Below are positions 9,729 through 28,938 of a stretch of 32,000 bases of DNA, in pieces. The stretch is taken from positions 30,001 through 62,000 of the forward strand of contig JAWCFL010000011.1 of assembly GCA_038858525.1 (NCBI GenBank), read 5' to 3'. Every line of letters starts with the position of its first letter. Within the stretch, counting starts at the first letter, position 1. The notes beneath the pieces were generated by a model. That model searched no databases, was not told the DNA's origin, and worked only from the letters and a program-made list of their open reading frames with translations. A program made the position numbers and the translations under genes. The stretch comes from Candidatus Jordarchaeales archaeon. GTDB taxonomy: Archaea; Asgardarchaeota; Jordiarchaeia; Jordiarchaeales; Freyrarchaeaceae.

Positions 9729-12044
9729 GTGAAGAAAAGATGCGAAATACTGTGCAGCGGAGTAGTTCAAGGAGTCGGCATGCGGCCTTTCGTGTACCGG
9801 ATAGCTGTCAAAAACAGCTTAACAGGCTACGTCCTCAACTTGGGGGATGCCGGAGTAAAAATAGTCGTTGAAGGAGAAGAGGAAGACATTAAAAGGTTTA
9901 TGATGGAGCTAAAGGAGAAAAAACCCCCACTGGCAAAGTTTGAGAAGATAAGGACGAAGTGGGGAAAGGCACGCGGAGAGTTCGATACGTTCACCATAGA
10001 GAAGAGTAGCAGTGACAGGATACTCGAAAGTTCCTACATACCTCCAGACGTGGCGATCTGCAATAACTGCATACAGGACATGTTGAACCCTAATGATAGG
10101 CATTACAAGTATGCGTTCACATGCTGCGCGGACTGCGGTCCAAGGTATACATCAATAATAGGTTTACCCTACGATAGAGAACTAACAACGATGCGAGACT
10201 TCCCTCTGTGCCCTCACTGCATGGAGGAATACATGAACCCTATGGATAGGAGATACCACGCTCAAGGAATATGCTGCCCTATCTGCGGCCCAAAACTCAC
10301 ACTCCACGCGAAAAACGGTGAGCTCATAGATTGCAACAACCCAATAGCGGAGGCAGCCAGATTAATAAATGAGGGGGCCATAGTGGCTGTGAAGGGTATA
10401 GGGGGAAGCCACCTAGCGGCGCTCACAACTGATGACGAATGCGTACTTAAACTAAGGCAGAGGAAAAGAGACAGGAAGTATAAGCCCTTCGCTGTCATGT
10501 CTCTGAGCCTCAACGAAGTAAGAAAGTATGCAGAAGTTAGTCAAAAAGAAGAGGAGGTTCTAACATCCTTCAGACGACCCATAGTGCTACTCAGGAAAAA
10601 AGAGGACTTTCCGCTTTCTAAGTGGATTAGCCCCGGACTACACAACATAGGTGTGATGCTGCCATACTCGGGACTGCACATACTCTTGCTGCAAGAGGTC
10701 ACAGACCCCGCTGTCATAATGACCAGCGGAAACGCGTCAGGAAAGCCCATAGCAGCAAGCAACGAGGAAATCATCACCCACCTTAGCGACTTAGCAGATT
10801 ACTTCTTGCTCCACAACAGAGTGATATACCAGAGGTGTGACGACTCTGTTGTCAAGATAGTAAATGGAAAAACCAAGCTGATACGCAGGTCAAGAGGCTA
10901 TGTGCCAGAACCAATAGAGACGCCGATACCGTACAGGGGAAAAGGAATACTGGCAGTCGGACCAGAACTAACAGTAACAGTAACCGTTATGAAGGGAAGT
11001 AGGTGCTATGCCAGTCAACACATAGGCGACGTCTCAGGCGACCTCGACATGATGGAGTTCCACGAAAGCGTCACGACACACCTGCTAAAACTTTTAAACG
11101 TAAATCCTGAAGCCTTGGCATGTGATCTGCACCCTCAATTCATGACGACCAAGATAGCAGAAGAATACGCTGAAAAATGGCAGGTCCCGCTGGTGAGGGT
11201 TCAGCACCATCATGCCCATGCGGCTGCACTAAAAGCGGAGCACAAATTGGATGAACCCATAGTCTGCATAGCGTGTGACGGCGTCGGCTACGGGCCAGAT
11301 GGAACTATATGGGGTGGAGAAGTGCTACTCTCAGACTATGAGTCGAGCGAGAGACTCGGGCACCTTGCCCCCCAACTTATGCCCGGAGGAGACCAAGCCA
11401 CTAAGTACCCAATAAGAATGGCGGCATCCATTCTCAGCCGTGTTTTGTCCGACAGTGAACTGAGGGATATTCTAACATCAAAATACATTGACGGGTTTAA
11501 ATACGGGGAAAAAGAGGTGGAAGTTGTCCTAAAGATGATAAGAGACGCTAAGGGGCCTCTCTCAACCAGTACAGGGCGCGTCTTAGACGCTATAGCAGCC
11601 CTGCTAGGAATATGCATGGAGAAAACATATCAAGGAGAGCCAGCGATGAGGCTTGAGGCAGCGGCGGCAAAAGGCAAACCAACCCTGAAAATAGAGCCCA
11701 AAATAAGTCGCTCAGACGGACGATACGTACTTGACACGTCCCAAATACTTTCTGAAGTGCTACAGGCGTTAGGAAAACATAGAGTAGAGGACTTAGCGGC
11801 ATCCGCCCAGCACGCTATAGCAATAGGATTAGCGGACATCGCCGTGAACGTGGCACAAGAGGAAAATGTGAGAACCGTTGGGTTTACAGGAGGCGTAGCA
11901 TACAACGAAGCCATAACAAAAACCATAAGAAAGCACGTCGAAAAAAACGGGCTAGTTTTTATACAGCACTCAGTTATACCTCCAGGCGACGCTGGAGTGA
12001 GCATAGGGCAAGCGATAGTGGCGGCGTGCAGATTATTAGGTTAG
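9729..12044 (+). CDS. hypF: Hydrogenase maturation carbamoyltransferase
   Basis: Acylphosphatase GVVQGVGMRPFVYR, Zn fingers (CNNC, CADCGPRY, CPHC, CPICGP), KGIGG, SQHIGD, CDLHP, QHHHAH, DGVGYG and PPGDAGVSIGQ. Confidence 0.97.
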   Translation: MKKRCEILCSGVVQGVGMRPFVYRIAVKNSLTGYVLNLGDAGVKIVVEGEEEDIKRFMMELKEKKPPLAKFEKIRTKWGKARGEFDTFTIEKSSSDRILESSYIPPDVAICNNCIQDMLNPNDRHYKYAFTCCADCGPRYTSIIGLPYDRELTTMRDFPLCPHCMEEYMNPMDRRYHAQGICCPICGPKLTLHAKNGELIDCNNPIAEAARLINEGAIVAVKGIGGSHLAALTTDDECVLKLRQRKRDRKYKPFAVMSLSLNEVRKYAEVSQKEEEVLTSFRRPIVLLRKKEDFPLSKWISPGLHNIGVMLPYSGLHILLLQEVTDPAVIMTSGNASGKPIAASNEEIITHLSDLADYFLLHNRVIYQRCDDSVVKIVNGKTKLIRRSRGYVPEPIETPIPYRGKGILAVGPELTVTVTVMKGSRCYASQHIGDVSGDLDMMEFHESVTTHLLKLLNVNPEALACDLHPQFMTTKIAEEYAEKWQVPLVRVQHHHAHAAALKAEHKLDEPIVCIACDGVGYGPDGTIWGGEVLLSDYESSERLGHLAPQLMPGGDQATKYPIRMAASILSRVLSDSELRDILTSKYIDGFKYGEKEVEVVLKMIRDAKGPLSTSTGRVLDAIAALLGICMEKTYQGEPAMRLEAAAAKGKPTLKIEPKISRSDGRYVLDTSQILSEVLQALGKHRVEDLAASAQHAIAIGLADIAVNVAQEENVRTVGFTGGVAYNEAITKTIRKHVEKNGLVFIQHSVIPPGDAGVSIGQAIVAACRLLG

Positions 12045-12996: not shown

Positions 12997-13038
12997 GCAT
13001 CGATGCGCGACATCGATATCTGAAAGCGATATCAGACT
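12997..13038. promoter_or_regulatory. Palindrome-rich spacer, candidate operator or centromere-like site
   Basis: GCATCGATGC (12997-13006), CGACATCGATATC (13008-13020) and GATATC (13028-13033) lie in the 52-nt spacer between the ATPase and RHH genes. Confidence 0.55.
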
Positions 13039-14092
13039 ACTCTGGAACCTCCTCGATGCATGGTAAAGCATCCACAAGGGCTCCATCGATCACAGGGCTT
13101 CCTCCATCCTTGAACCTGTTAGCAGCAACGAACACTGCCTGGTTGCAAAGCATACGAAGGTCACGCCCCACACCCATAGACTTTCGTTTCAAAGCAGGAA
13201 CCGCATCCTCGGTGAAGGGGTGTATTTCAAAAGAGGACTCGTCAAACTCCTTAAGGCGGCCGCTAGCCCAATAAAGCCTCCTGCCGATAAATTCCCTGAC
13301 GCCGCGCTCATCCAATGGTTCAAGCTCGATCTCCCAACATCTATCATAGAGGTGAGGGACGCCTTCCTTGAGACCTATAGCATGAGTCTTCGTTCCAGTC
13401 AAAACGAGCATGCATATCATCTGATCCTCGTCGCCCTCCTCCGCAGCCCGCTTAATCGCATTAATCTCCCCCTCGTCAAGCTTCATTTTTTTAAGCTTAA
13501 GGAACCGCTTGAATTCATCTTCTTCTTCAACTACGAACCGCTTGGCGTCCTTCAGCGTTAAGTCGCCGACCTCCTTGATCTTAATAAAGACCTCAACGTC
13601 GTTCTCGCCGAAATCATCTATGAATATCAACGTAAGATATCCACTCAAAAGATATCGAAGCATGATATCATACTTGACCAGCACGTAAATGTCTTCAGCA
13701 TTGGCCGATCGAGAATATGGAACCCTAAGTTTCTTCGCCAAAACCTCAGCCATCTGCCTCACATACAGCTTACTCTGAGACACCATCACGGGATAGAAAC
13801 GATACTCAGGGTCACCCTGCCTAGAAAGCTCTAGAAGGTCCCCGTAAATCAGCTCGAGAAGCGTCGTTTTACCCATGCCGGGAAACTCGCTCGTTATCAG
13901 TATATGCCGCTCCCTAGCCTTAATGTAATCATCGATCTCAACTATTACATCATGAGGAGCCACGAACAGTTCAGGGTCGCTTAACCTCACACTCGAAAAC
14001 GGGTTCCACCTCCACCCGAAGAAGGAGTAGTATGCATTTCTAATCTCAGCCACCGAAGGGTAGAGACGCCCAACAGCACCCATACGCTCCAC
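13037..14092 (-). CDS. ExeA/TnsC-like (AAA_22-type) AAA+ ATPase, about 351 aa
   Basis: YYSFFGWRWNPFS leader, P-loop ITSEFPGMGKTT, Walker B IFIDD, MLVLTGT, candidate Arg finger LYDR and lid FTEDAVPALKRKSMGVGRDLRMLCNQA. GTG 14092 lies 6 nt after GGAGGT; ATG 14083 is an alternative. Confidence 0.8.
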   Translation of the reverse strand: MERMGAVGRLYPSVAEIRNAYYSFFGWRWNPFSSVRLSDPELFVAPHDVIVEIDDYIKARERHILITSEFPGMGKTTLLELIYGDLLELSRQGDPEYRFYPVMVSQSKLYVRQMAEVLAKKLRVPYSRSANAEDIYVLVKYDIMLRYLLSGYLTLIFIDDFGENDVEVFIKIKEVGDLTLKDAKRFVVEEEDEFKRFLKLKKMKLDEGEINAIKRAAEEGDEDQMICMLVLTGTKTHAIGLKEGVPHLYDRCWEIELEPLDERGVREFIGRRLYWASGRLKEFDESSFEIHPFTEDAVPALKRKSMGVGRDLRMLCNQAVFVAANRFKDGGSPVIDGALVDALPCIEEVPE

Positions 14093-14102
14093 ACAACCAC
14101 CT

Positions 14103-14150
14103 CCGACATCCGATATCGACAGCCGAAAAAGATACCAGAATCCAGATATC
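14103..14150. promoter_or_regulatory. GA(T/C)ATC cluster just upstream of the ATPase RBS
   Basis: CGACATC-CGATATCG (14104-14118) and AGATATC (14144-14150). Confidence 0.5.
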
Positions 14151-14444
14151 AAAACCAGAAAACGATACGCAAAATCTAAAGAGAAAAAACATCGTAATAC
14201 GTAGAGAACACCAACAGAATACGAGAAATACGCGGGAAGGCCAGCTGCGATTGAAAAGGAACACGAGCTCAAGAAACACTAAGAGAGCTAAACGAGAACC
14301 AAGAGCGACGTAGGTTTACAAAAAAGTATACCCACAGGGAGCCTAAAGCAGAAGAGAACATCAAACGAAAAGGATAAATACCAGAAATATGGAGGGAATA
14401 CCTCCATAAATAAGAAAGACGAAGAGCACAACAGTATTAGTTAC

Positions 14445-14996: not shown

Positions 14997-15131
14997 CAGG
15001 TAAACTTATAAATCACTAAGCTAAACTTGAGCTTTTTATACAAAAAACTTATATCTTCTAAGTCCCAAGTATTTTGGGGGAGAGTTTTAATTTTAAAAGT
15101 TTAATTAATAAACTTAAGAGAGTTTTACTTT
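14997..15131. other. AT-rich candidate DNA unwinding element of oriC
   Basis: 135-bp AT-rich non-coding segment between oppositely oriented ORB-1 and ORB-2. Confidence 0.7.
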
Positions 15132-15152
15132 TTCCAGTTGAAACAGTGGGGT
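15132..15152 (+). promoter_or_regulatory. Origin recognition box ORB-2
   Basis: TTCCAGTTGAAACAGTGGGGT. Confidence 0.88.
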
Positions 15153-15173
15153 GGGTGGGTTTCCTTCTTTTAT

Positions 15174-15193
15174 TTTGGAACACATGTTCTAAA
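15174..15193. repeat. 20-bp palindrome, copy 2 (inverted relative to copy 1)
   Basis: TTTGGAACA-CA-TGTTCTAAA; 19/20 identical to the reverse complement of 14445-14464. Confidence 0.85.
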
Positions 15194-15476
15194 TGTTTTC
15201 TTCCTCTACAACTACAAAAACTCGGCACTTAACAATATCCTTGTATTTCTTGAAGAAAGCATTGAAGACTTCTGCGTGTTCATCTTGAACTAGTATTGCG
15301 CTATCTCCTGCCCTGTCGCAACCATAGAAGTCCACAAGGCCTAATTTTTGCCCCTTTAATGTTTTTCCTTCCTTGTTTTTCCATTTGTAGGCGTATCCGA
15401 AGAGTTCCTTGAAGAATTTCACCCTGCGCGGGTTACTCGAATGTTCCGCCTTTACGTCGTAGACGTATATTCTCAA
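15189..15476 (-). CDS. Small protein with a Cas2/VapD-like sequence pattern (95 aa)
   Basis: TTG 6 nt after GGAGGG. IYVYDV...RRVKFFKELFGY and SAILV resemble the Cas2/VapD ferredoxin-like fold. The fold is inferred. Confidence 0.6.
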   Translation of the reverse strand: MRIYVYDVKAEHSSNPRRVKFFKELFGYAYKWKNKEGKTLKGQKLGLVDFYGCDRAGDSAILVQDEHAEVFNAFFKKYKDIVKCRVFVVVEEENI

Positions 15477-15553
15477 AGTTTTCCCTCCATCAATACGTTG
15501 CAGCCATTCGTCTTTGAAGACTTGTATTTTCGTTGTCTTTTTGTGGTCAATAG

Positions 15554-15921
15554 CTTAACATGTTAACACAGTGTTAACATAGCCGTTTTGAGTTGTTAAC
15601 ACGTTGTTTTTGCTATGAATAATGCAAATTATCTTAGTTAAAAATTGACCCCTTTATTTCAACTGCAACATTTTTTTCGATATTTTTCTCTTTCCTTTTC
15701 GTGTTAACACGGTTTGTTAACCTTTATTTAGAAAAAACAATGGAAAATTGTTTTTTTGAAGATTTACCGCTTTTTATTTCAATTTTTCTTGTTAATACTT
15801 TTTAAAAATTCTCTTTGTCAAAAGATGGCGTATTTTTTCCTTTTTTTGTTCTTTTCGTGTTCGTCACGTTAACAAATTTACACATTATTTCTCTTTGTTT
15901 TTAACGCGTTGTTTTGTTAAC
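15554..15921. repeat. Cluster of seven GTTAAC palindromes
   Basis: GTTAAC at 15562, 15573, 15595, 15703, 15716, 15868 and 15916, including ATGTTAACAC-A-GTGTTAACAT (15560-15580). Confidence 0.85.
15648..15668 (-). promoter_or_regulatory. Origin recognition box ORB-3
   Basis: Minus strand reads TTGCAGTTGAAATAAAGGGGT. Confidence 0.85.
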
Positions 15922-16255
15922 GTATTGCGTGTTTTAGGTGAACCATTTCCCCCTTTAGAAAATAACGTTTTTTTGCTGGCTTCAAAGTTTTTATGGACTC
16001 TTCTTTTAGCTTATCGTAGAAAGCGGCATATGTTCTGTTTTTCAGAGGGATTGAGCTGCGGGTTAATGTTCAAGTGTAAAGTGTTTGGTGTTGGCTCCTG
16101 AAAGCCCCTGAGGTTGTATTTTTGTGGGTGGAATGCATTAGTCTTGCAGTTTGATTATTCTGCTTTTTATGTGTTGCTGGTTGGAGTTGTTAAGGGTGTT
16201 TTTCGGGTGTAATAGATAGACATATATATTTACGCGTGTAAGTTTAACTTACCTC

Positions 16256-16269
16256 GTTTCCAGTGGAAG
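16256..16269 (+). promoter_or_regulatory. Mini-ORB overlapping the RBS of the winged-helix gene
   Basis: GTTTCCAGTGGAAG, the ORB core without the G-string. Confidence 0.75.
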
Positions 16270-16278
16270 GTGTGCTGG

Positions 16279-16749
16279 TTGGGGGCGAAGCGCTACAAGA
16301 TCGAGATAGTTGATGCCGAGCGCAACGTGAAGGCTACTTTGACTATTGAGGGTGATGTTTCCCCCCAGCTGGCGGCATCTCTTGTGGAGGAGCTTTCCGA
16401 GAAACTGTCTGAGGGCGGAGTGGCGGAGGAGGCACCTGCTGGGTTTGAGGCTTCCGAGGTTGACGCCGAGCTCCCCGACACTGAAAGTCTCTCGATGAAG
16501 GATAAAATTGAACTTGTACTGCTAAAGTATTTCCAGTATGGGTGGTTTACTTCTGGTGATGTTCATGAGCAGTTTACTCGGGTTTTTGGTGAGACCTCTC
16601 TAAGCGTGGTTTCAACATACTTGGCGAGGCTGCGTAGTGAGGGGCTCTTGGAGCGTAAGGGAACGAAAAAGCAGTATTATTACCGGCTTAAGGAAAGTGG
16701 CCGGCTCAGGGCTTCTAGGCTTAGCGAGCTTCTTCAGCTTCTTCCGTGA
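16279..16749 (+). CDS. Winged-helix protein with a small N-terminal beta domain, upstream of cdc6
   Basis: C-terminal wHTH pattern WFTSGDVHEQF...SLSVVSTYLARLRSEGLLERKG...YYYRL, with an acidic linker. TTG 16279 lies after AAGGTG. Confidence 0.8.
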   Translation: MGAKRYKIEIVDAERNVKATLTIEGDVSPQLAASLVEELSEKLSEGGVAEEAPAGFEASEVDAELPDTESLSMKDKIELVLLKYFQYGWFTSGDVHEQFTRVFGETSLSVVSTYLARLRSEGLLERKGTKKQYYYRLKESGRLRASRLSELLQLLP

Positions 16750-16770
16750 AGTTGCTTCTCGACCGAGTGT

Positions 16771-16841
16771 GTTTCCAGTGTAATATTAATGGATATATTT
16801 GCCGGAAGTTAAGCATTATTCACCTTTGTTTCCAGTGGAAG
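16771..16841 (+). promoter_or_regulatory. Two mini-ORBs in the cdc6 upstream region
   Basis: GTTTCCAGTG (16771-16780) and GTTTCCAGTGGAAG (16828-16841). Confidence 0.75.
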
Positions 16842-16861
16842 TAGGAAAAGTGGTGGTTTGT

Positions 16862-18109
16862 TTGGGTGAACGTTCTCTTGAGGCGCTTTTTGAAAGGTTT
16901 CTCTCAACCAAGATCTTCAAGAATCGTGACGTGTTGAGTCATACTTATGTTCCTGACGAGTTACCTCACCGTGACGAGCAAATAGAGAAGGTTGGGTTAA
17001 TTCTCGCCTCAGCTCTTAAGGGCGGCACTCCTTCGAACGTTTTCATTTATGGAAAGACGGGTACAGGTAAGACTGCTGTCGTACGCTTCGTTCTTAAGCA
17101 CCTTGTTGCTAAGTGTCACGAGCTGAATGTGCCTGCTCCCTTACCCGCTTACCTTAACTGTAGAATTGTAAACACTAATTATCGTGTTCTGGCTCGGCTT
17201 TGCTCCTACTTAGGTGTCGAGGTTCCCTTTACGGGTCTGCCTACCGATGAGGTTTACAGTAGGTTTAGGGACGTGCTTGATAGCAGGGACGTGTTGATGA
17301 TAATCGTGCTCGACGAGGTTGAACGGTTAGTTGAGCGGGACGGTAGTAACGTCCTCTACGACCTAACTAGGATGAATCACACTGTTCTTAAGCGGGCGCG
17401 CGTCAGCATAATAGGCATCACGAATGACTTAACGTTCAAGGATAACCTTGATCCTAGAGTGCTGAGTAGCTTAGGGGAAGAAGAGCTAGTTTTCCCGCCT
17501 TACACTGCCGCTGAGCTCAGGGACATTCTTTGGCAGAGGGCTCAGCTTGCCTTCAGAGAGGGCGCTCTTGAAGGTCCAGGAGTCATCAATCTTTGCGCAG
17601 CTATAGCCGCTAAGGAGCACGGGGACGCCCGTCGCGCCCTAGACTTGCTTAGAGTCGCTGGCGAGATAGCTGAGCGGGAGGGCGCAGAAAAGGTTTCCGA
17701 AGAGCATGTGAGAGCCGCTCAACACGTCATCGAGCGAGATCACCTGGTTGAGGCACTGAGAACTCTCCCTATGCATTCTAAGCTTGTACTTTACACTATT
17801 TTTGAGTTGACTAAGCAGGGAAGGGGTAAAGCTAGGACCGGGGACATATACAACTACTACTTGAACGTTTGCAGGCGTCTACATGTTGAGCCGTTAACTC
17901 AGAGGCGGGTTAGTAGCCTTATAAATGAGCTTGACATGCTGGGTGTCGTTGCGGCTCATCTTAAAAGCAGAGGACGCCATGGGCTCTCGAAAGAAGTGAA
18001 ACTCAACGTTTCAGTAAATCAAGTCAAACAAGTCTTAGAGGAGGATTCATTCATAAAGAAGCTTTCATCCAGTGACTCGTCTCCTCTCTTTGAGGCTAGT
18101 CCCCAGTAA
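16862..18109 (+). CDS. cdc6: Orc1/Cdc6 replication initiator
   Basis: YVPDELPHRDEQI, YGKTGTGKT, LDEV, IGITND, LDPRVLSSL, FPPYTAAEL, HGDARRALDLLR and a C-terminal wHTH (SRGRHG). TTG 16862 after GGTGG preferred over 16799. Confidence 0.97.
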   Translation: MGERSLEALFERFLSTKIFKNRDVLSHTYVPDELPHRDEQIEKVGLILASALKGGTPSNVFIYGKTGTGKTAVVRFVLKHLVAKCHELNVPAPLPAYLNCRIVNTNYRVLARLCSYLGVEVPFTGLPTDEVYSRFRDVLDSRDVLMIIVLDEVERLVERDGSNVLYDLTRMNHTVLKRARVSIIGITNDLTFKDNLDPRVLSSLGEEELVFPPYTAAELRDILWQRAQLAFREGALEGPGVINLCAAIAAKEHGDARRALDLLRVAGEIAEREGAEKVSEEHVRAAQHVIERDHLVEALRTLPMHSKLVLYTIFELTKQGRGKARTGDIYNYYLNVCRRLHVEPLTQRRVSSLINELDMLGVVAAHLKSRGRHGLSKEVKLNVSVNQVKQVLEEDSFIKKLSSSDSSPLFEASPQ

Positions 18110-19610
18110 AGTCCAGCTGAGCCACCCAGAAGTCCTTCAAATTAACGATGTACGGTTTTCCGGGTGTTGGTGTTAAGCCCATGGCTTTCTGATAATCTGT
18201 TTGGTCCTGAAATGTCCCTGAGTTTATCACGGTCACACCGCGATAATTTTCTTGCCCATTCACGTGAAGGTGGCCACAATGAAAAATATCTGGGACCTTC
18301 TCGATAACTAAGAGGTCCATTGGTTCAGGGGACAATGGCGTTGAACCATAGACTGGCGCTAAATGTCTTCCTCTAAGAAGCTCTATCATTGCTTTTTCCG
18401 GGTAGTGTGAGTCTATTGATAGAGCTGTCATCACGTCATTCAGCGGGTCTCCATGAAAGCATAACACCTCAACGCCGTGTATTCTAAAGTATGCTGGGTC
18501 TCCAAGCATTTCGACTCCTATTTCGTAAAGTGGTTCACTGTAATCTTTAGGTATGGCTGGCTGGGGTAATGCTTGCCTAGTTGCATCGTGCCCGCCCGGT
18601 ATAGCTATAGTCTTAACGTAGTCTGGTACGTTTTCAAGATGCCTCGCTGCTATTTCGTATTGCGCGTAGAGTTCCTCGACGACGAGCTCCTTCTCTTGAT
18701 TCGGGTAGACTCCGACTCCATCCACTATGTCTCCTCCAATTACCAAGTATTTAACTTGTTTTGCCAAGCTTCTGCTTTTCTCGTCCCCTCTTTTGCCCTG
18801 AAGCCATTCTAGGAACCTTGTAAATGGTTTCTCCATGAATTTCTTGCTGCCGAAATGCGTGTCTGAAATGAAGACCGCCATTATGGGTTCATCAGCCCTC
18901 CTAGGTTTGTGATCGAATGGTATGTCGGGCCAAATGATGTTATCAGCCACAACGAACGCTCCATTACTCCTACCTTCCACGCAGACTACTTGGTCCAGCA
19001 TAAGGTGTCGCGCCTTGTCTGTTAAGTTGCTCGGGATTAGAACGCTGACCACACCGTCAAGATCCTCAAGTTCTATGACCATGGAGCCACTTCGAGCCCT
19101 CGAAATTTCCCTGACTAATCCTATTAACTTGACTTCCTCGGCTCTGCCTACTTCACATGTCCTACATATCCCTTTTATGTCCCCCCTTTTCAGAAAGAGG
19201 TTGCTGAGACGCATATATCTATCCTTGAAGTAATTAACAAAGTCGTCTAGGGACCCACTGGTTCCTATCATCTTTGTTGGATCCATCACCACTTCAAAAT
19301 CTTCATCTACTTCCCTAGCGGTTAGGGCCGGCTTAGGCTTCAAGCCTGGAGGAATTATACTTTGTGCTTCCTCGCTTTTAGGAGCTTTTACATTAGTTGC
19401 TTCTCGGGGCTCCTCTTTTTCAATTAGCTTCCTAATATCTTCCTCTGTTAGGACAAGTGTTCCCTCTGTGGCCTTAACCTTACTTATGACTAAGGAAGCT
19501 AAGCTAGGCTCAAGTGCCAATATGACGTCTAGCGCTCTGGGAGTAACTTGCAGTCCGGCTTCAAGCAACTCCTTAACTGTTCTCTTTGCAACCTGCGATG
19601 TCCCTATCAA
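18096..19610 (-). CDS. polB: DNA polymerase D small subunit DP1
   Basis: YFKDRY, OB fold (ELEDLDG, DQVVCVEG), SDTHFGSK, GDIVDGVGVYPNQ, PGGHD, RQALPQP, RHLAPVYG, HCGHLH, NSGTFQDQT and TPTPGK. Confidence 0.96.
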   Translation of the reverse strand: MIGTSQVAKRTVKELLEAGLQVTPRALDVILALEPSLASLVISKVKATEGTLVLTEEDIRKLIEKEEPREATNVKAPKSEEAQSIIPPGLKPKPALTAREVDEDFEVVMDPTKMIGTSGSLDDFVNYFKDRYMRLSNLFLKRGDIKGICRTCEVGRAEEVKLIGLVREISRARSGSMVIELEDLDGVVSVLIPSNLTDKARHLMLDQVVCVEGRSNGAFVVADNIIWPDIPFDHKPRRADEPIMAVFISDTHFGSKKFMEKPFTRFLEWLQGKRGDEKSRSLAKQVKYLVIGGDIVDGVGVYPNQEKELVVEELYAQYEIAARHLENVPDYVKTIAIPGGHDATRQALPQPAIPKDYSEPLYEIGVEMLGDPAYFRIHGVEVLCFHGDPLNDVMTALSIDSHYPEKAMIELLRGRHLAPVYGSTPLSPEPMDLLVIEKVPDIFHCGHLHVNGQENYRGVTVINSGTFQDQTDYQKAMGLTPTPGKPYIVNLKDFWVAQLDFTGD

Positions 19611-20082: not shown

Positions 20083-21063
20083 GTGTCTAAGATGGAAATT
20101 AGGAAGCTTCAGAAAACTGGAGGTAGCACCTTCCTCTTAAGCCTTCCTAAGGGTTGGATTAAGCGTATGGGTCTTAAACAAGGAGACCTTGTAGCATTAA
20201 TAGAAAGAGGGGACGGTGCCCTCCTTGTCGATCCTCGCTACTCTGAAAAGGAAAAAGTCAAAATGGCTATTATAGAAATTGACGCTAGCCCGAATTTTAC
20301 AAGAGAAATAACCGCAAACTTCCTTTATGGTTATGACGTTATACGGATCCGCTCGAAGAATGGCATCACGTCCGAGCAGAGAGATGCCATTAAGCGCTCG
20401 CTTCAACAACTTGTTGGCGTAGAAATAGTTGAGGAAAGCGCTAAGGAGATCACTCTCCAATGCTTACTTTCACCCTCAGCTCTTTCCCTAAAGAGAACGA
20501 TAAAGAGAACTTACCTCATAGCTGCTAGAATGCAGGAGGACGCTGTGACCGCTATAAAGGACAAGGACCTTAACTTGGCAGAAAGTGTTGTGGTGAGAGA
20601 CGAGGACATTGATAGGCTTTACTTTTTAATGGTCAGGCAGCTTCGCTCAGCGATAATGGAACCCTACTTAGCGGAGAAAATCGGCATCAGCCCCATAGAA
20701 TGCTTAGATTACCGTGTCGCAATCAAAAGCATAGAGTCCATGGCAGACTACTCCGTCAAGATAGCCGAGCAAGTCCACCTCATACTTGACGCTAAGATCC
20801 CGGAGAACGTTATTGAAAGCATCCTGAAAATAAATCGCATAGCTCATGAAATGCACTCTAACGCCATAGAAGCTCTCGTAAGGAAGGACGGAGTTTTAGC
20901 GTCAAAAACCATCGCGATGAAGCCTCAACGTAACCAAGCCGTAGAGGAAGCTTACAAGGCCCTTGCAAACGAATCAGTAGAAATATCTATTCCTCTCAGC
21001 ACTGTAGTTGACATGCTAGACCGTATATCTGAATGCGGCGTTGACATAGCTGACCTAGCATAA
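20083..21063 (+). CDS. phoU: Archaeal phosphate-uptake regulator (AbrB/MazE-like N-terminus plus PhoU domains)
   Basis: RKLQKTGGSTFLLSLPKGW, RDEDIDRLYFLMVRQL, IESMADYSVKIA and LDRISECGVDIADL. Confidence 0.88.
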   Translation: MSKMEIRKLQKTGGSTFLLSLPKGWIKRMGLKQGDLVALIERGDGALLVDPRYSEKEKVKMAIIEIDASPNFTREITANFLYGYDVIRIRSKNGITSEQRDAIKRSLQQLVGVEIVEESAKEITLQCLLSPSALSLKRTIKRTYLIAARMQEDAVTAIKDKDLNLAESVVVRDEDIDRLYFLMVRQLRSAIMEPYLAEKIGISPIECLDYRVAIKSIESMADYSVKIAEQVHLILDAKIPENVIESILKINRIAHEMHSNAIEALVRKDGVLASKTIAMKPQRNQAVEEAYKALANESVEISIPLSTVVDMLDRISECGVDIADLA

Positions 21064-21114: not shown

Positions 21115-21978
21115 ATGAAGTCGATAGATGAAATGGCTCGTGAAATACAGTCTCGCTTCAAAATCGTTGGTAGGCTAGAGGAGCTAAAGAAGGCACTAGC
21201 CGCTAAACTAGCGTCCCGCCACCTTCTAATAGAAGGGGAAGTGGGTGTTGGAAAGACGACACTGGCGGACGCAATAGCGAGATACTTTAACCAGCCAATG
21301 TTCCGAGTTGACGGCGATGAACGTTACACGGAGGCTAAATTAACAGGGTGGTTTGATCCTCCAGCAGTAATGAAGTACGGCTACACGAAGGACGCTTTTG
21401 TTCCGGGGCCCCTTACTCTCGCCATGCTTGAAGGCGGCATTCTATTCGTAAACGAAATAAACCGTTTAAGTGAGTCTACGCAGAATGTTTTCCTTCCTGT
21501 TATGGATGAAGGCAAATTGGGGATCCCGAAGATAGGCGAGATCACAGCGAAGGACGGATTCTTCATCATAGCCACGCAGAACCCTCTTGAGCATGTTGGT
21601 GTAACCGCTTTAGGTGAAGCATTAAGAGACCGTTTCTGCTGGATACGAATCGACTACCAGAGTGAAGAAGAAGAAAGAGAAATAGTGGCACTCAAATCCG
21701 GCTGCTCCAACCCTGATATAATACGGTTGGCAGTAAAAATAGTGAGAGCAACCCGCACACATGAGGATCTGCGGAGGGGGGCGTCAGTTAGAGGCGCTAT
21801 CGACATTGCGCGTCTCCTATCTCACTACAACGGCACCCAGGTGACTTCGAAGGACTTGTGGGTTCAAGTTGCAGTAATGGCTCTTGGCACACGTGTCGAA
21901 CTCGAGGACGGTGTCGGCAAGACGGTTGAAGAAGTCATAAGGGAAATTGTAGACGAATGCTTTGAGGATTTTCGGTAA
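21115..21978 (+). CDS. MoxR/CoxD-like AAA+ ATPase
   Basis: LLIEGEVGVGKTT, LTGWFDP, GPLTLAM, FVNEINR, IATQNP, ALRDRF and GASVRGAID. Confidence 0.92.
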   Translation: MKSIDEMAREIQSRFKIVGRLEELKKALAAKLASRHLLIEGEVGVGKTTLADAIARYFNQPMFRVDGDERYTEAKLTGWFDPPAVMKYGYTKDAFVPGPLTLAMLEGGILFVNEINRLSESTQNVFLPVMDEGKLGIPKIGEITAKDGFFIIATQNPLEHVGVTALGEALRDRFCWIRIDYQSEEEEREIVALKSGCSNPDIIRLAVKIVRATRTHEDLRRGASVRGAIDIARLLSHYNGTQVTSKDLWVQVAVMALGTRVELEDGVGKTVEEVIREIVDECFEDFR

Positions 21979-22136
21979 GAGAGGAGGCCCAGCCCTCCGA
22001 TGAGACTAAACGCATAAATCCCTTCTCGGCTTTCGACCTCCTCCTAGAGGAAATCTCCCTGGGCTCAGCACCTCCTTACGTTTACACAGACCTCGCAAGA
22101 AACCTTGACTATGCCTCCATAAAAAGAGCCGCCGAA

Positions 22137-23048
22137 ATGGCGTTAAAATGTGGAAACCTTTCAGCCATCAAGGGCCTCTCAAAAGTGAACCCTGTCGCCG
22201 TCTCTGACGTCTTCTCATGTCCTGACGCAGCTCTCCTGGTTGCTAGGCGCCTATCCCGCGGCGACGTCCAAAGCCCTGTAGAACTTTACGTTCTGTTGCG
22301 TGGCAATCTTCGCTACAAGTATAGGCAAATTTTCAGAAGACTGGCGAAGATGGCGGTTCTCAAAACGTCCCTCAGGATCAGCGGGCGCGGACTTAAAGGG
22401 CCATTAAGAAGAAGGGTGCCTTATTACCCTGGATTAATGGAGTTCGATGATGAGTCGATGATTGAATCCTTTTTGGAGAAAGGATACCTCTCATACGAGG
22501 ATGTAGTTGGACTGGAGTCCCGCTCGCAAGCTAAATCTAGCGTGCTTCTCTTCGACTCCAGTGGAAGCATGACCGAAGAGAAACTTTTCAACGCGGCTCT
22601 TTCGACAGCAGTCTTAGCTTATCATATGCGAAACGAGGATTACGCGGTTATAGGGTTTGGAACCCGTGCCTTCACCCTTAAAAAAATCGGTGAGAGAAAG
22701 GACATAGGTAAAGTGGTTGAGGAAATACTAGACATAATTTCTATAGGTTACTCAAATATAAGCGACGCACTCTCGGTTGGGCTAAAAGAGCTTTCCAAAG
22801 TAAAGCATAAAGGAAAACGCTGGGGAGTTCTAATAACGGACGGTGAGTGGAATGTGGGAGGAGACCCCACGCCGTTGGCAGCCAAGTTTCCAACCCTTCA
22901 TGTTATAGCAACTCCAAGCAAGGGTAAAATAGCGGAACATGGCTTGAAAACATGTAAAGAGCTGGCCAGCGCGGGCAGAGGGCGCTTTATGGTTGTAAAA
23001 AACTTCTCAGAAATTCCCCGCCTACTCATAAAGCTACTTCTATCATGA
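22137..23048 (+). CDS. VWA (MIDAS) domain protein, MoxR partner; reading frame is open upstream to 21966
   Basis: LLFDSSGSM, SNISDAL, LITDGEWNVG and LASAGRGRF. Confidence 0.88.
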   Translation: MALKCGNLSAIKGLSKVNPVAVSDVFSCPDAALLVARRLSRGDVQSPVELYVLLRGNLRYKYRQIFRRLAKMAVLKTSLRISGRGLKGPLRRRVPYYPGLMEFDDESMIESFLEKGYLSYEDVVGLESRSQAKSSVLLFDSSGSMTEEKLFNAALSTAVLAYHMRNEDYAVIGFGTRAFTLKKIGERKDIGKVVEEILDIISIGYSNISDALSVGLKELSKVKHKGKRWGVLITDGEWNVGGDPTPLAAKFPTLHVIATPSKGKIAEHGLKTCKELASAGRGRFMVVKNFSEIPRLLIKLLLS

Positions 23049-23066: not shown

Positions 23067-23960
23067 TTATTTCTCTGATGCAAACCTCCAAAACTCCTCT
23101 ACCGCTGCGGACATCTTCCTTCTTTTGTCTCTAACAAGATACAGCACACGCTCGACGTCCCACCCTTCCACCTCAATGATCTTGACCAGTCCAGCGGCCT
23201 CTGCCTTCCTGGCAGCAGTCTCAGACAAAACGGTTATCCCAAGCCCCACAGACACCGCGTTTATCACCGCTTCCGTGCTGCCAGCTTCCAGTGATATCTT
23301 CACCTTGTCAAGAGGAACTCCCAGCTGCATGAAAGCTCTTTCTGCCTCAATTCTGGTTCCCGATGTTTTTCCCCTAAACACAAATGGGTAACGTAAGCAA
23401 TCCTCCAATGTAACTTTCTTTTTCATCGCAAGCTCATGGTTAACTGGACATATGAAAACAAGTCTTTCTCTTCCGATAGGCGTTACCTCTATCTCCTTAG
23501 CACTCGCCTCCATAAGGCTTCCCACAGCTGCTAGGTCAGCCTCTCCCCTAAGTAGCTTCTTTAAGGCTCCACCAGTATCTAACACCTCGATCTCAAAACT
23601 GATCTTCGGATTCTTTTCTTTGAATCGAGCCACTAATTCAGGAAGAATGTGCTCCCCTGGAATAGTGCTCGCTACAAGTATTATTTTTTCCTCCCCCTCT
23701 CCCTCCATCTTTCTTAGCTCCTCCTTAATCTTCTCTACTAGTTCTAGAATCTCCTTAGCTCTCTTCAGCAGTGCTTCACCTTCCTTGGTTAACCTTACTG
23801 TTCTCCTACTCCTATCAAAAAGAGTTACACCAAAAAATTTCTCGAGCGCAGCTATGTGATTGCTTACTGTGGCTTGGGTCACTCCCAGCTCTCTAGCAGC
23901 CCTAAGGAACCCGCCCTTCTCCACAACCTCAACAAACGTTCTAAAGTACTCTATCCTCAT
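23067..23960 (-). CDS. LysR-family transcriptional regulator
   Basis: FLRAARELGVTQATVSNHIAALE...LFDRS...LTKEG, ASTIPGEHILP, PFVFRGKTSGTR and GSTEAVINAVSVGLGI. Confidence 0.95.
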   Translation of the reverse strand: MRIEYFRTFVEVVEKGGFLRAARELGVTQATVSNHIAALEKFFGVTLFDRSRRTVRLTKEGEALLKRAKEILELVEKIKEELRKMEGEGEEKIILVASTIPGEHILPELVARFKEKNPKISFEIEVLDTGGALKKLLRGEADLAAVGSLMEASAKEIEVTPIGRERLVFICPVNHELAMKKKVTLEDCLRYPFVFRGKTSGTRIEAERAFMQLGVPLDKVKISLEAGSTEAVINAVSVGLGITVLSETAARKAEAAGLVKIIEVEGWDVERVLYLVRDKRRKMSAAVEEFWRFASEK

Positions 23961-26331: not shown

Positions 26332-26682
26332 GTGGTTTTCTTGGAGTCTGAAGATTTGCAGAAAATGGTTGACATGTTACGACGTGGCGCGACGTTGCTT
26401 TCTAAGTCGTGTCCCGTATGTAACTCCCCCCTATTTAAGGTGGACGGGAAAATATGGTGTCCAACATGTGAAAAGCAAGTTGTTGTGATAAGAGAGGGAG
26501 AGCCGCCTCCCCCAGAGTTAAGTAGCTTGCTACTCGCCAGCTTGGCAAATGCAATCTATGAGAAGCTCAGAGGAGTAGAAGCACGCATCAGGGAAGCTAG
26601 AGACGCTGATGAGCTACAAGAGTCATTAAGACTTGCTGTTGGACTACTAGAAGTTTTAGAGCGAATAAAACGCTTAACTTAA
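26332..26682 (+). CDS. UPF0148 / autoantigen-p27 Zn-ribbon protein
   Basis: MLRRGATLLSKSCPVCNSPLFK...IWCPTC, followed by a coiled-coil. Start uncertain. Confidence 0.88.
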   Translation: MVFLESEDLQKMVDMLRRGATLLSKSCPVCNSPLFKVDGKIWCPTCEKQVVVIREGEPPPPELSSLLLASLANAIYEKLRGVEARIREARDADELQESLRLAVGLLEVLERIKRLT

Positions 26683-28938
26683 TTCTTCTTCGTTGTACTC
26701 GGCTTGGATGATCTTCCTTATTCGTTCCGCCTTCTTTTTTCCTATACCTTGAACTTCCATGAGCTCCTTCTCATTAGCAGTGAATACTTTTTCAACACTC
26801 TTAAACTTCTGAAGTAATCTTTTAGCTAAAATATGATCTACGCCTGGTAAGGCCGCTACCAAATGCTCCTGTAGCTCTTTTATTGTGCCTGGCTTTTTGA
26901 TTCCAATCCGTATTCCCTTTCTCCCCTCTTCTCTTTCTCTTCGAGCCACAGTCTTAATTACCTCAGCGGTTTCTTTAGCGTTTCTCGTCCAAAAAATTGG
27001 CGTTTTAAAGTCTAATGCTATACTTACTAACGCCCCTCTGATCGCTTCAGCCTTCACACCTCCTCTCTCATACAAGCCTTCCCCTTCTATTATCAAGAGG
27101 GGAGCTTCATAGGTCCTTGAGAGGTCGGCGATCTGCTTGAAAACACGCTGGTCTATGATTGACTGCACGAAATCGGTAGCCGTCTTACGCTCTATGCACA
27201 CTTTCTCCGAAACAACGTAGTCGCCAACATCTAGCTTCGTTAAAATAACCTCAACTCCAAGCCTAGCCAGCTCCTGAACAACAGGGCTCCCCCCCTCCCT
27301 CACATCCGCATAAACGGTTAACCTGTCTTCCTTTGGAATATATTCCTCCAAAGTGGCTTGCTGATTAACCTCCACCCTACTTTCTAATCCACCTCCTTTT
27401 CTCTCCAGCTCTCTTATGACTCCACGCATATTCTCCTCCCTCCACTTCACTGACCAATAGTATTTCTCGTCCATAGTTCCCTTAGCTATAAGGAAGACAA
27501 CCCTTCCCGGCCTACGCCTACCGGTCCGTCCCTTCCTCTGAACGAACCTTATAGCGCTGGGAGTAATGTCATAGAAGACTACTAAGTCACACTCGCTGAC
27601 ATCAATTCCCTCTTCAGCCACACTAGTGGCAACCAACACATTAAACTCTCCCCTTCTAAACCTTTCAAGAACCTCAGCTTGCTGCCTCTGTGTAAGGCCG
27701 GTAGCGTTTCCTCTGTTACCTTGCCCAACTATCCTGTCAGCGTTAATTCCATCCTCACGGAGCTTCTTCAATATGTCGTCTACTGTGCTTCTAAACTGCG
27801 TGAACACTATCACCCGCGACTCTGGTTTGCCAGAGAGTTGTTCTTTAACGACGTTGACAAGAACACCAAGCTTAGGGTGCGTCATCCCTTGAACGCTCAT
27901 TGCTGCCACTTCGCTCCTTACAGATGCTACGAGCGGATCTTCAAGAAGATTCATCAGTCCTCTCCCTCCCTTAATCCGAGCCCTTTCATTCATCCTCTCA
28001 AAGTACTTATTGAGGGCACTAATCCCCTGAGTCTCCAAAATTTCGTGAGCGTGAGCAAGCCTAATGGCGCCTGAGACCGCTGCTAAACACTCGTAATCCT
28101 TCTCGCTTTTCTCTTCTTTTCTCAAAAGTAACTCTTGAAGCTCTAGAAGCTCTCTTCTAGTCCACTTTTTCTTTGCCTGAACATACCCTGCTTCCCTCAA
28201 AATATTCATTAGTCCCTTAATGGCCTCTTCAAGCTTTGCTTTTGCGCGTAACATTTCTGGGGAAAGCGTTACGTTAACCCATTCAACCTTAACTTTTTTA
28301 ACATAAGGTGCAACGTCAGGGCTTCTTTCAGTTCGCGCCTCAACAAACTTTATGCTTAGAGCCCTACAGACATCCAGAACCTTTTCCCTTTGAGAACCGG
28401 GTGACGCGGTGAGTCCCAAGATAAGAGGCTTCTTCGCCTGCTTCAAATACTCCTCTGCTATGAAAACGTACGGGTAATCGCCTACCGCTCTATGTGCTTC
28501 ATCAAAGACCAGGAGAACCCAGTCTGAAGCATCCACTCGCCTAGCTATCAAGTCGTTTCTAACAACCTGCGGAGTTGCTATGATGACTTTTGCCATCCGC
28601 CATATGTTTTCCCTCTCCTCCGGCAACGTCTCTCCAGTGCAAGTTCTCACGGCGTCCTCAGGCAATTTTAAGATCTTTTTGAAAGTTTCTGAGTGCTGGA
28701 CAACTAAAGGCTTCGTGGGAGCTAGAACAACAACTTTCCCCCAATCGTATTTAAGTAACCTTTCCGCAGTCAAGATCGCCGCGATAACGGTCTTACCTAA
28801 ACCCGTAGGGAGCACCACAAGCGTGTTACCCTGCAAAGCCTTAGAAAATATGTTCCTTTGATACTCTCTAACTTCAACGCTTCCTTCCCTAATAAGAGGG
28901 TGCATAAACTGCTCCGAAGAATGCATGCTCTCCTTCAT
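26674..28938 (-). CDS. hef: Hef (FANCM-like) DEAH helicase fused to an ERCC4/XPF nuclease
   Basis: REYQ, PTGLGKT, FDEAHRA, GLTASPG, ATSVAEEGID, VQRKGRTGR, ERCC4 motifs (ADVRE, GDYVV, IERK) and two HhH motifs. Confidence 0.95.
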   Translation of the reverse strand: MKESMHSSEQFMHPLIREGSVEVREYQRNIFSKALQGNTLVVLPTGLGKTVIAAILTAERLLKYDWGKVVVLAPTKPLVVQHSETFKKILKLPEDAVRTCTGETLPEERENIWRMAKVIIATPQVVRNDLIARRVDASDWVLLVFDEAHRAVGDYPYVFIAEEYLKQAKKPLILGLTASPGSQREKVLDVCRALSIKFVEARTERSPDVAPYVKKVKVEWVNVTLSPEMLRAKAKLEEAIKGLMNILREAGYVQAKKKWTRRELLELQELLLRKEEKSEKDYECLAAVSGAIRLAHAHEILETQGISALNKYFERMNERARIKGGRGLMNLLEDPLVASVRSEVAAMSVQGMTHPKLGVLVNVVKEQLSGKPESRVIVFTQFRSTVDDILKKLREDGINADRIVGQGNRGNATGLTQRQQAEVLERFRRGEFNVLVATSVAEEGIDVSECDLVVFYDITPSAIRFVQRKGRTGRRRPGRVVFLIAKGTMDEKYYWSVKWREENMRGVIRELERKGGGLESRVEVNQQATLEEYIPKEDRLTVYADVREGGSPVVQELARLGVEVILTKLDVGDYVVSEKVCIERKTATDFVQSIIDQRVFKQIADLSRTYEAPLLIIEGEGLYERGGVKAEAIRGALVSIALDFKTPIFWTRNAKETAEVIKTVARREREEGRKGIRIGIKKPGTIKELQEHLVAALPGVDHILAKRLLQKFKSVEKVFTANEKELMEVQGIGKKKAERIRKIIQAEYNEEELS

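Follow-up and report, generated by a model that had tools for sequence, protein, structure and literature searches.

A MoxR-type ATPase gene and its VWA partner in Asgard archaea are probably joined by programmed −1 ribosomal frameshifting

Is a MoxR-type AAA+ ATPase gene whose end is overlapped by the reading frame of a VWA/MIDAS protein complete in itself, or is it the first part of a longer gene whose second part is reached by a change of frame? The question is raised by a gene pair in a stretch of 32,000 nucleotides (nt) from Candidatus Jordarchaeales archaeon (assembly GCA_038858525.1, contig JAWCFL010000011.1, positions 30,001 to 62,000), referred to here as the window and numbered from its first letter (Table 1). 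The MoxR gene ends with the codons GAG GAT TTT CGG TAA, and the frame encoding the VWA protein is the −1 frame relative to it. This frame is open from position 21966, just past an in-frame TGA (21963–21965), and runs through 57 codons without ATG, GTG or TTG before its first canonical start, the ATG at 22137. The heptamer G GAT TTT (21966–21972) lies within the last MoxR codons, such that its UUU (21970–21972) is the codon of the C-terminal MoxR residue Phe286, with the −1-frame UUU at 21969–21971, and a GGAGG/CCTCC hairpin (21983–21998) begins 10 nt past the heptamer. A preliminary description of this DNA had reported the start-less open frame with its translation, the heptamer and the hairpin, and all of these are found in the window as described. 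From comparative sequence analysis, we estimate a probability of about 0.85 that the MoxR and VWA genes are one recoded unit joined by programmed −1 ribosomal frameshifting. The window alone would be weak evidence for this, because an open stretch of 57 codons is not rare (chance about 0.07 by our own arithmetic, assuming uniform codons) and the hairpin is about as stable as shuffled sequences, so the case rests on about 100 related loci.

We sampled 100 loci, 20 from a search of 40 relatives and 80 from a scan of one genome per species, all of them Asgard and comprising Jord-, Sif-, Borr-, Wukong-, Loki/Prometh-, Hermod-, Hod-, Odin-, Kari- and Heimdall-type lineages; the closest records come from hot-spring metagenomes. 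Both genes are contained in 98 loci, and 81 distinct −1 loci are left after duplicate removal. The VWA frame stands at −1 relative to MoxR in 89 of the 98 loci and at +1 in the other 9, is never in frame (0/98), and always overlaps the end of MoxR. In all 81 distinct −1 loci a slippery heptamer occupies the homologous place, as N_GAU_UUU in 65, A_AAU_UUY in 11 and G_GGU_UUU in 5, and its distance to the MoxR stop is 0–2 codons in 80 of them and 5 codons in one. Orthologues therefore keep the heptamer and the −1 overlap that had been noted in the window. The site is slippery in the zero frame, as a −1 cassette requires: the UUU re-pairs perfectly, and the shift from GAU to GGA keeps a G-C and a G.U pair.

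The constraint on the heptamer appears to act on the RNA as well as on the protein. Phe286 is invariant and always lies at the extreme C-terminus of MoxR (alignment A2), and the codon before it ends in U in 81/81 loci, including all five that use GGT; as background in the same genes, GAT accounts for 78% of Asp, AAT for 75% of Asn and GGT for 32% of Gly codons. We attach no p-value to these counts, because the loci are related by descent; the GGT cases, together with the three different amino acids found before Phe, argue for a nucleotide-level constraint. The heptamer is followed by a stop codon in 26 of the 81 loci and by the final sense codon in 53, and CGG, which fills this position in the window, makes up 5% of the Arg codons in the MoxR genes of −1 loci. 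The overlapping −1 open reading frame (ORF) is conserved without an initiation codon of its own: in 44 of the 81 distinct loci no canonical start occurs from the preceding in-frame stop as far as Leu26/Ile30, invariant residues of the VWA protein, that is, none before its conserved N-terminal helices, in line with the preliminary description.

Folding energies were calculated along the loci in segments of 48 nt, and they fall (mean z = −1.4 to −1.7) in no segments other than those starting between 6 nt before and 12 nt after the heptamer end. In one class of loci, which we call class A (22 loci with 20 distinct hairpin sequences, from Jord-, Sif-, Borr- and Heimdall-type genomes and several further families), the hairpin spans exactly the interval from 10 nt after the heptamer to directly before a conserved GAUGA. 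No sequence relationship is seen among the stems, which include GGAGG/CCTCC, GGAGAT/ATCTCC, GGGAATTC/GAATTCCC and AGGGAGCTG/CAGCTCTCT, and their outer six pairs are nevertheless formed at 112 of 120 positions, compared with 87 ± 3.3 for permuted partners (maximum 100 in 2000 permutations) and 41–80 for slid partners, a count for which only the fixed anchors, 10 nt after the heptamer and GAUGA, were used. The downstream structure is this covarying hairpin, whose distance is short and constant: 10 nt from the heptamer, or 7 nt from the next codon. In class B, a large Loki/Hermod/Hod-type clade, GAUGA stands 8 nt after the heptamer and the hairpin follows it. The inner stem of class B varies in a compensatory manner as judged by eye (CGGA/UCCG, CAGA/UCUG, UUCA/UGAA, GGAG/CUCC); the outer stem UCUC/GAGA gives no covariation signal in a formal count (171/190 paired, compared with 168 for permuted partners), because it is invariant in sequence. 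No Rfam family reaches its threshold at the slip and hairpin site or anywhere else in the window.

We infer the slip itself, its efficiency and its purpose from this arrangement. Most ribosomes would read MoxR through to its TAA and release the 287-amino-acid ATPase, and a fraction would slip back by one base with peptidyl-tRNA-Phe on the UUU of G_GAU_UUU, which would re-pair on the overlapping UUU. The slip may be aided by a slow next codon (the rare CGG, followed by the stop), by the hairpin 10 nt downstream, which a ribosome with UUU in its P site would meet at the mRNA entrance, and by tRNA-Asp re-pairing in part, at a place where a canonical X_XXY_YYZ heptamer is found in relatives. For UUU in the P site, the spacer of 10 nt sets the hairpin at about +14, and for UUU in the A site the hairpin would be too far away; the geometry thus fits P-site slippage of tRNA-Phe during slow A-site filling better than a classic two-tRNA slip. 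Slippage in the P site with slow A-site filling is established for other sites (PMC8211752). The shifted ribosomes would make a protein of 286 + 358 = 644 amino acids with the junction ...ECFEDF|SVREEAQ..., in which the ATPase is followed by a disordered acidic linker, a helical domain and the VWA/MIDAS domain. The two products proposed in the preliminary description, a 287-residue ATPase and a fusion of roughly 640 residues, are thus supported by the comparative evidence as predictions, and they would differ in their tryptic peptides: EIVDECFEDFSVR is predicted across the frame junction, and EIVDECFEDFR at the zero-frame end.

If the start-less stretch is translated, it should be conserved as protein, which is what we find for 21979–22136 from about residue 20 of the −1 frame onwards. 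There, the VWA-protein alignment (A1) shows the pattern LLExEI...Y..LA..LDY..IK..AE.AI, in which L26, E29 and I30 are invariant or nearly so. An AlphaFold model based on this alignment has a mean predicted local distance difference test (pLDDT) score of 86.4; in it, −1-frame residues 1–18 are disordered and of low confidence, followed by helices 22–32, 37–44 and 49–61 at pLDDT 93–98. Met58, encoded by the ATG at 22137, lies inside the third of these confident helices, so that a VWA protein begun there would miss part of the helical bundle; this residue is not conserved, being L, V, E, S, K or T in relatives. Further downstream, the VWA protein has the Rossmann-like fold and the DxSxS...T...D signature of the VWA/MIDAS domain class: the DxSxS motif (DSSGS) is intact at 22554–22568, D197, S199, G200, S201, D292 and G293 are invariant, and fold comparison matches it at probability 1.00 to VWA domains including the MIDAS domain of Rea1 (rank 1) and the VWA domain of NorD. 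By sequence, no solved structure was matched by the VWA protein at E ≤ 0.01.

The ATPase belongs to the MoxR-class AAA+ proteins (AAA_5; CbbQ/NorQ/GvpN-like with an adjoining VWA partner), with the Walker A motif GEVGVGKT encoded at 21235–21258 and E114, R173 and R226 invariant in alignment A2. Among solved structures, the closest to it by sequence are midasin AAA domains (E = 1e-31), NorQ (8e-15) and CbbQ, with NorQ and CbbQ matches ranging from E = 1e-14 to 2e-9. We assign it to no named subfamily, because the equivalog cut-offs of GvpN and MadB are not reached. A chelatase ATPase of the ChlI/ChlD type was rejected, as TIGR02031 gives 29.6 bits against a cut-off of 499.55 and TIGR02030 16.7 against 466.95, and Mg_chelatase (PF01078) matches only marginally (E = 8.8e-4; 19.2 bits, under the 20.3 cut-off). 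As a separate observation, the Walker B motif of this family (window residues 110–117) reads hhhhNE rather than DE, with Asn113 nearly invariant and Glu114 invariant, and a fused in-frame paralogue has EE at the position of NE.

Such fused paralogues, in which an N-terminal AAA_5 is combined with a C-terminal VWA domain, occur as in-frame ORFs of 643 and 644 amino acids in other Asgard genomes (Table 1) and are colinear with the predicted fusion. The 644-residue paralogue aligns with MoxR over its residues 16–291 (37% identity, E = 1e-60), up to ...EEDFK where the window has ...FEDFR, and with the VWA protein over residues 343–636 (31% identity, E = 1e-35). The in-frame fusions that had been suggested as a check on the frameshift therefore exist as paralogues. 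Several Asgard genomes hold 2–5 AAA_5+VWA copies of about 640–650 residues.

An artefactual indel was a further concern for this junction. Contigs from two other DNA studies cover 21500–22269 and 21931–22500 without any difference from the window, and a contig from a metatranscriptomic library covers 21670–22195 with one substitution and no gap, so that independent DNA contigs and an RNA-library contig cross the junction intact. The RNA-library contigs leave 22214–22383 uncovered, and such contigs can hide minor RNA variants, just as RNA libraries can contain DNA. The substitution in the RNA-library contig is a C>T at 21828 inside MoxR, most likely strain variation.

A different solution seems to have arisen at the same Phe codon in the nine +1 loci (L030, L032, L033, L034, L037, L043, L050, L056 and L071; seven distinct), all Heimdall-type. 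In a concatenated-protein tree they form one clade nested in the Heimdall group, with a Shimodaira–Hasegawa-like approximate likelihood ratio test (SH-aLRT) support of 100, in a tree whose root on long paralogue branches is insecure. Their MoxR genes end in AAG UUU UUU CGG NCC, in which UUU UUU CGG never changes although the Gly and Lys codons around it do so synonymously, and CGG makes up 2% of Arg codons in this clade. Past UUUUUUC, the zero frame varies in residue and stop position, whereas in the +1 frame, which encodes G-P-S/N-E, all changes are synonymous and fall on third positions (GGG/GGA/GGT, CCT/CCA/CCC). A conserved ATG is also present in this clade 8–11 nt after the MoxR stop, and because only synonymous changes occur before it, the +1 frame is coding upstream of this ATG. 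This points to +1 slippage, from UUU to UUC at a hungry CGG codon, perhaps beside separate initiation, and that recoding at this one Phe has been achieved in two different ways suggests that selection maintains the fusion itself.

How far can the same observations be explained without frameshifting? Several points weigh against our interpretation. The 5-base-pair hairpin of the window is no more stable than shuffled sequences (−9.6 kcal/mol, z = +0.35), its 10-nt spacer exceeds the usual 5–9 nt, and G_GAU_UUU is not strictly an X_XXY_YYZ heptamer, whereas relatives have the canonical A_AAU_UUY and G_GGU_UUU. Some in-frame start is present between the heptamer and the conserved region in 35 of the 81 loci; several Heimdall-type loci share a Met about 23 codons downstream, and two close relatives have starts at the very beginning of the −1 open frame (GTG in L002, ATG and GTG in L004). 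Finally, no in-frame orthologue was found at E ≤ 1e-10 among longer database proteins, in a search that was weak. These starts, the ATG kept in all nine +1 loci and the fact that MoxR and VWA genes are separate in most known systems (NorQ/NorD, CbbQ/CbbO) speak for a VWA protein initiated on its own, either at a non-canonical codon such as the ATA at 22014 or by termination and reinitiation, with no fusion made. We consider this improbable, since it leaves unexplained why the heptamer is invariant with synonymous-site constraint, why a covarying hairpin stands at a fixed 10 nt, and why the frame is never 0 and always overlapping. The ATA is not kept either, its position being ATA, ATA, GTA, GTG and GCA in the five closest relatives, and the GGAGG 27 nt upstream of it is too distant for a Shine-Dalgarno role. 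Where the Met recurs in Heimdall-type loci, separate initiation may coexist with the frameshift. Two candidate signals were examined and rejected: the ATG within the conserved GATGA belongs to the frame of MoxR rather than to that of the VWA protein and opens an ORF of only 5 codons in the window, and the GGAGG of the hairpin has no start codon 5–10 nt downstream that would make it a Shine-Dalgarno sequence.

Transcriptional slippage is a known alternative at homopolymer recoding sites (reviewed by Atkins et al. 2016, cited in PMC9227772), and the slip site always holds a run of 4–8 T, on which a minority of mRNAs one base shorter or two bases longer could encode the fusion in frame. In the window and many relatives, however, the run has only four T, far below the runs generally known to support slippage, and the conserved structure downstream would act on the ribosome rather than on the polymerase. 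The RNA-library contig likewise has no indel at the site, within the limits of such contigs given above, and we regard this route as very improbable. A VWA gene of 303 codons that simply starts at ATG 22137, preceded by an open frame left by chance or as a relic, would take up the first canonical start and agree with the modest rarity of the open stretch; it is extremely improbable given that residues 20–57 are conserved across Asgard lineages and that the Met at this start is replaced in relatives and lies within a confident helix. Homopolymer runs are typical places for indel errors, and yet 89 loci, drawn from many studies and many assemblers, show the same frame relation, the contigs of two further DNA studies match the window exactly across the junction, and purifying selection is clear on both halves, which makes an assembly or sequencing indel, or a decaying pseudogene, a negligible prospect. 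Programmed −1 frameshifting is accordingly the interpretation that we retain.

The flanks of the class-A hairpin raise a further possibility about the stimulator. A kink-turn consists of a canonical stem, a 3-nt bulge, tandem sheared G.A/A.G pairs and a non-canonical stem, and in archaea a motif of this kind would be a target of L7Ae. In 21/21 class-A loci GA lies directly 5′ and GAU-GA directly 3′ of the hairpin, matching the kink-turn consensus, and a candidate outer helix is paired at 71 of 126 positions compared with 56 ± 4.5 for permuted partners, strongly only in Heimdall-type loci. The match is ambiguous, as GA and GAUGA double as the Glu and Asp-Asp/Glu codons of the acidic linker. It is conceivable, but in our estimation rather doubtful, that the stimulator is a kink-turn bound by L7Ae as a roadblock, which would set the ratio of free MoxR to MoxR-VWA and yield a hexameric AAA_5 ring with a tethered MIDAS. 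If so, L7Ae, a ribosomal and snoRNP protein, would be a trans-acting roadblock in frameshifting, and the archaea most closely related to eukaryotes would have, in an AAA_5 ring that carries a sub-stoichiometric MIDAS, a functional analogue of eukaryotic midasin and possibly a relative of it.

Among known systems, the closest precedent for the Asgard MoxR-VWA gene is frameshifted chlD, the gene for the medium subunit of a magnesium/cobalt chelatase, in which an AAA+-only protein and an AAA+-linker-VWA protein are made from one mRNA by programmed frameshifting (Antonov et al. 2013, PMC3711429; Kuznetsov et al. 2022, PMC9227772, which also cites Antonov 2020). Such genes are usually annotated as two adjacent genes, have in-frame fusions among their homologues, use −1 more commonly than +1 shifts and also occur in genomes without the chelatase large subunit; the slip site is poly-A, and the tested cases were from Pseudomonas, Burkholderia, Delftia, Herpetosiphon, Methanocaldococcus and Methanococcus (PMC3711429, PMC9227772). 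The Asgard locus shares the AAA+-linker-VWA architecture with a predicted short and long product. Unlike frameshifted chlD, its ATPase is of the AAA_5/MoxR type, nearest to NorQ, CbbQ, GvpN and midasin rather than to ChlI/BchI, its slip site is one for tRNA-Phe (N_GAU_UUU and variants) next to a stop codon rather than poly-A, and its taxon is Asgard. By analogy with ChlI/ChlD, for which this has been proposed, frameshifting probably serves to fix the ratio of free to VWA-tethered subunits in the MoxR hexamer. By analogy with NorQ/NorD as well, the motor would be a hexamer built of the short form, and a tethered MIDAS adaptor would come with the long form, at a ratio set by the efficiency of frameshifting. 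Such an assembly would also be reminiscent of midasin, whose ring of six AAA modules carries one MIDAS domain.

NorQ-NorD and CbbQ-CbbO (PDB 9qh4–9qhg, 5c3c, 6l1q) likewise pair an AAA_5 ATPase of about 270–290 amino acids with an adjacent VWA/MIDAS protein, but their partners are separate polypeptides with their own starts and no frameshift. The clients of these systems are known (nitric oxide reductase and Rubisco), whereas no client gene is conserved beside the Asgard pair. In midasin/Rea1 (PDB 6or5, 6qt8), as in the predicted fusion, AAA_5 modules are tethered to one MIDAS via a long linker with an acidic stretch; midasin, however, is one chain of about 4700–4900 residues with six fused AAA modules, whereas the Asgard fusion would have one AAA module per chain and be tethered by predicted recoding. 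We draw no specific midasin ancestry from this likeness, because Rea1 scores hardly better in the fold comparison than many other VWA domains do.

As for the slip site, dianthoviruses use G_GAU_UUU for −1 frameshifting. The same heptamer with a downstream structure is a −1 site in Fusarium oxysporum virus 1 (PMC11050907), and the heptamer string also appears in a paper on umbraviruses (PMC13098196). These viral sites are used by eukaryotic ribosomes in viral replicase genes. Within the archaea, fucA1 of Sulfolobus solfataricus (PMC8211752) is, like the Asgard locus, a cellular two-ORF gene with a −1 heptamer, rare codons and a putative stem-loop; it is strain-specific and its homologues are full length, whereas conservation of the Asgard site extends over a phylum-level group, with two useful products predicted. 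The precedents to which the preliminary description appealed, chlD (PMC3711429, PMC9227772), fucA1 (PMC8211752) and the viral heptamer (PMC11050907), hold. For archaeal recoding, a 2021 review names essentially a single cellular case that was tested (fucA1), next to a suggested chelatase case and some viral tail genes, and states that it was unknown whether other archaeal genes use frameshifting (PMC8211752). A full-text literature search for Asgard or Lokiarchaeota together with frameshifting returned no description of the MoxR-VWA gene.

Table 1. Features of the MoxR-VWA locus in the window, and in-frame paralogues from other Asgard genomes (coordinates preceded by a locus name)
Feature	Position	Strand	Remarks
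MoxR-type AAA+ ATPase gene	21115–21978	+	Zero-frame product 287 amino acids; Pfam AAA_5 (E = 2.9e-23), also AAA_3
Slippery heptamer G_GAU_UUU	21966–21972	+	Homologous place in 81/81 distinct −1 loci
Arg codon CGG, then MoxR stop TAA	21973–21978	+	Immediately 3′ of the slip site; CGG rare
Putative stimulatory element	21981–22003	+	GA (21981–21982), hairpin GGAGG/CCTCC (21983–21998, loop CCCAGC), GAUGA (21999–22003)
−1-frame coding stretch without ATG/GTG/TTG	21972–22136	+	Disordered acidic linker and three conserved helices (VWA N-terminal helical domain)
Remainder of the VWA/MIDAS protein (gene-caller ORF)	22137–23048	+	303 amino acids; Pfam VWA (PF00092, E = 7.8e-7), VWA_2
Predicted transframe product, MoxR(1–286) + VWA protein	21115–23048	+	644 amino acids (predicted)
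In-frame AAA_5+VWA paralogue	L101:1823–3754	−	643–644 amino acid class
In-frame AAA_5+VWA paralogue	L102:987–2921	+	643–644 amino acid class

The genomic neighbourhood does not name a client for the pair: clustering of the ORFs on either side of about 75 loci gave families present in at most 14 loci each, and no conserved neighbour pointed to one. In the window, a regulator with PhoU and AbrB/MazE domains (20083–21063) lies just upstream of MoxR and a LysR-type regulator (23067–23960, opposite strand) just downstream of the VWA gene; further away are a HypF carbamoyltransferase (9729–12044) and a Hef-type helicase-ERCC4 nuclease (26674–28938). None of these four is conserved beside the pair in other lineages. 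A 411-amino-acid ORF at 13037–14272 (minus strand) matches no Pfam family at E ≤ 1e-5. The gene-poor stretch 15080–16850 lies upstream of a Cdc6/Orc1 gene (16799–18109), with the gene for the small subunit of DNA polymerase D (18096–19610, minus strand) just beyond, and contains three GTTTCCAGTGGAAG-like repeats (at 16256, 16771 and 16828) and TTCCAGTTGAAAC-like inverted arms (at 15132 and 15648). These elements resemble archaeal origin recognition boxes, and this stretch is therefore a probable replication origin.

The predicted cassette of slip site, fixed spacer and covarying hairpin is conserved across Jord-, Sif-, Borr-, Loki-, Hermod-, Hod-, Odin-, Kari-, Wukong- and Heimdall-type genomes, with one clade that has apparently switched to +1, and it offers a testable model of frameshifting on archaeal, eukaryote-like ribosomes. 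For annotation, it would mean that hundreds of Asgard genes now called as MoxR and a truncated or start-less VWA gene are to be corrected. More broadly, it would widen the principle of one gene encoding both an AAA+ motor and a motor with its adaptor from the chelatases to the MoxR/NorQ/midasin branch.

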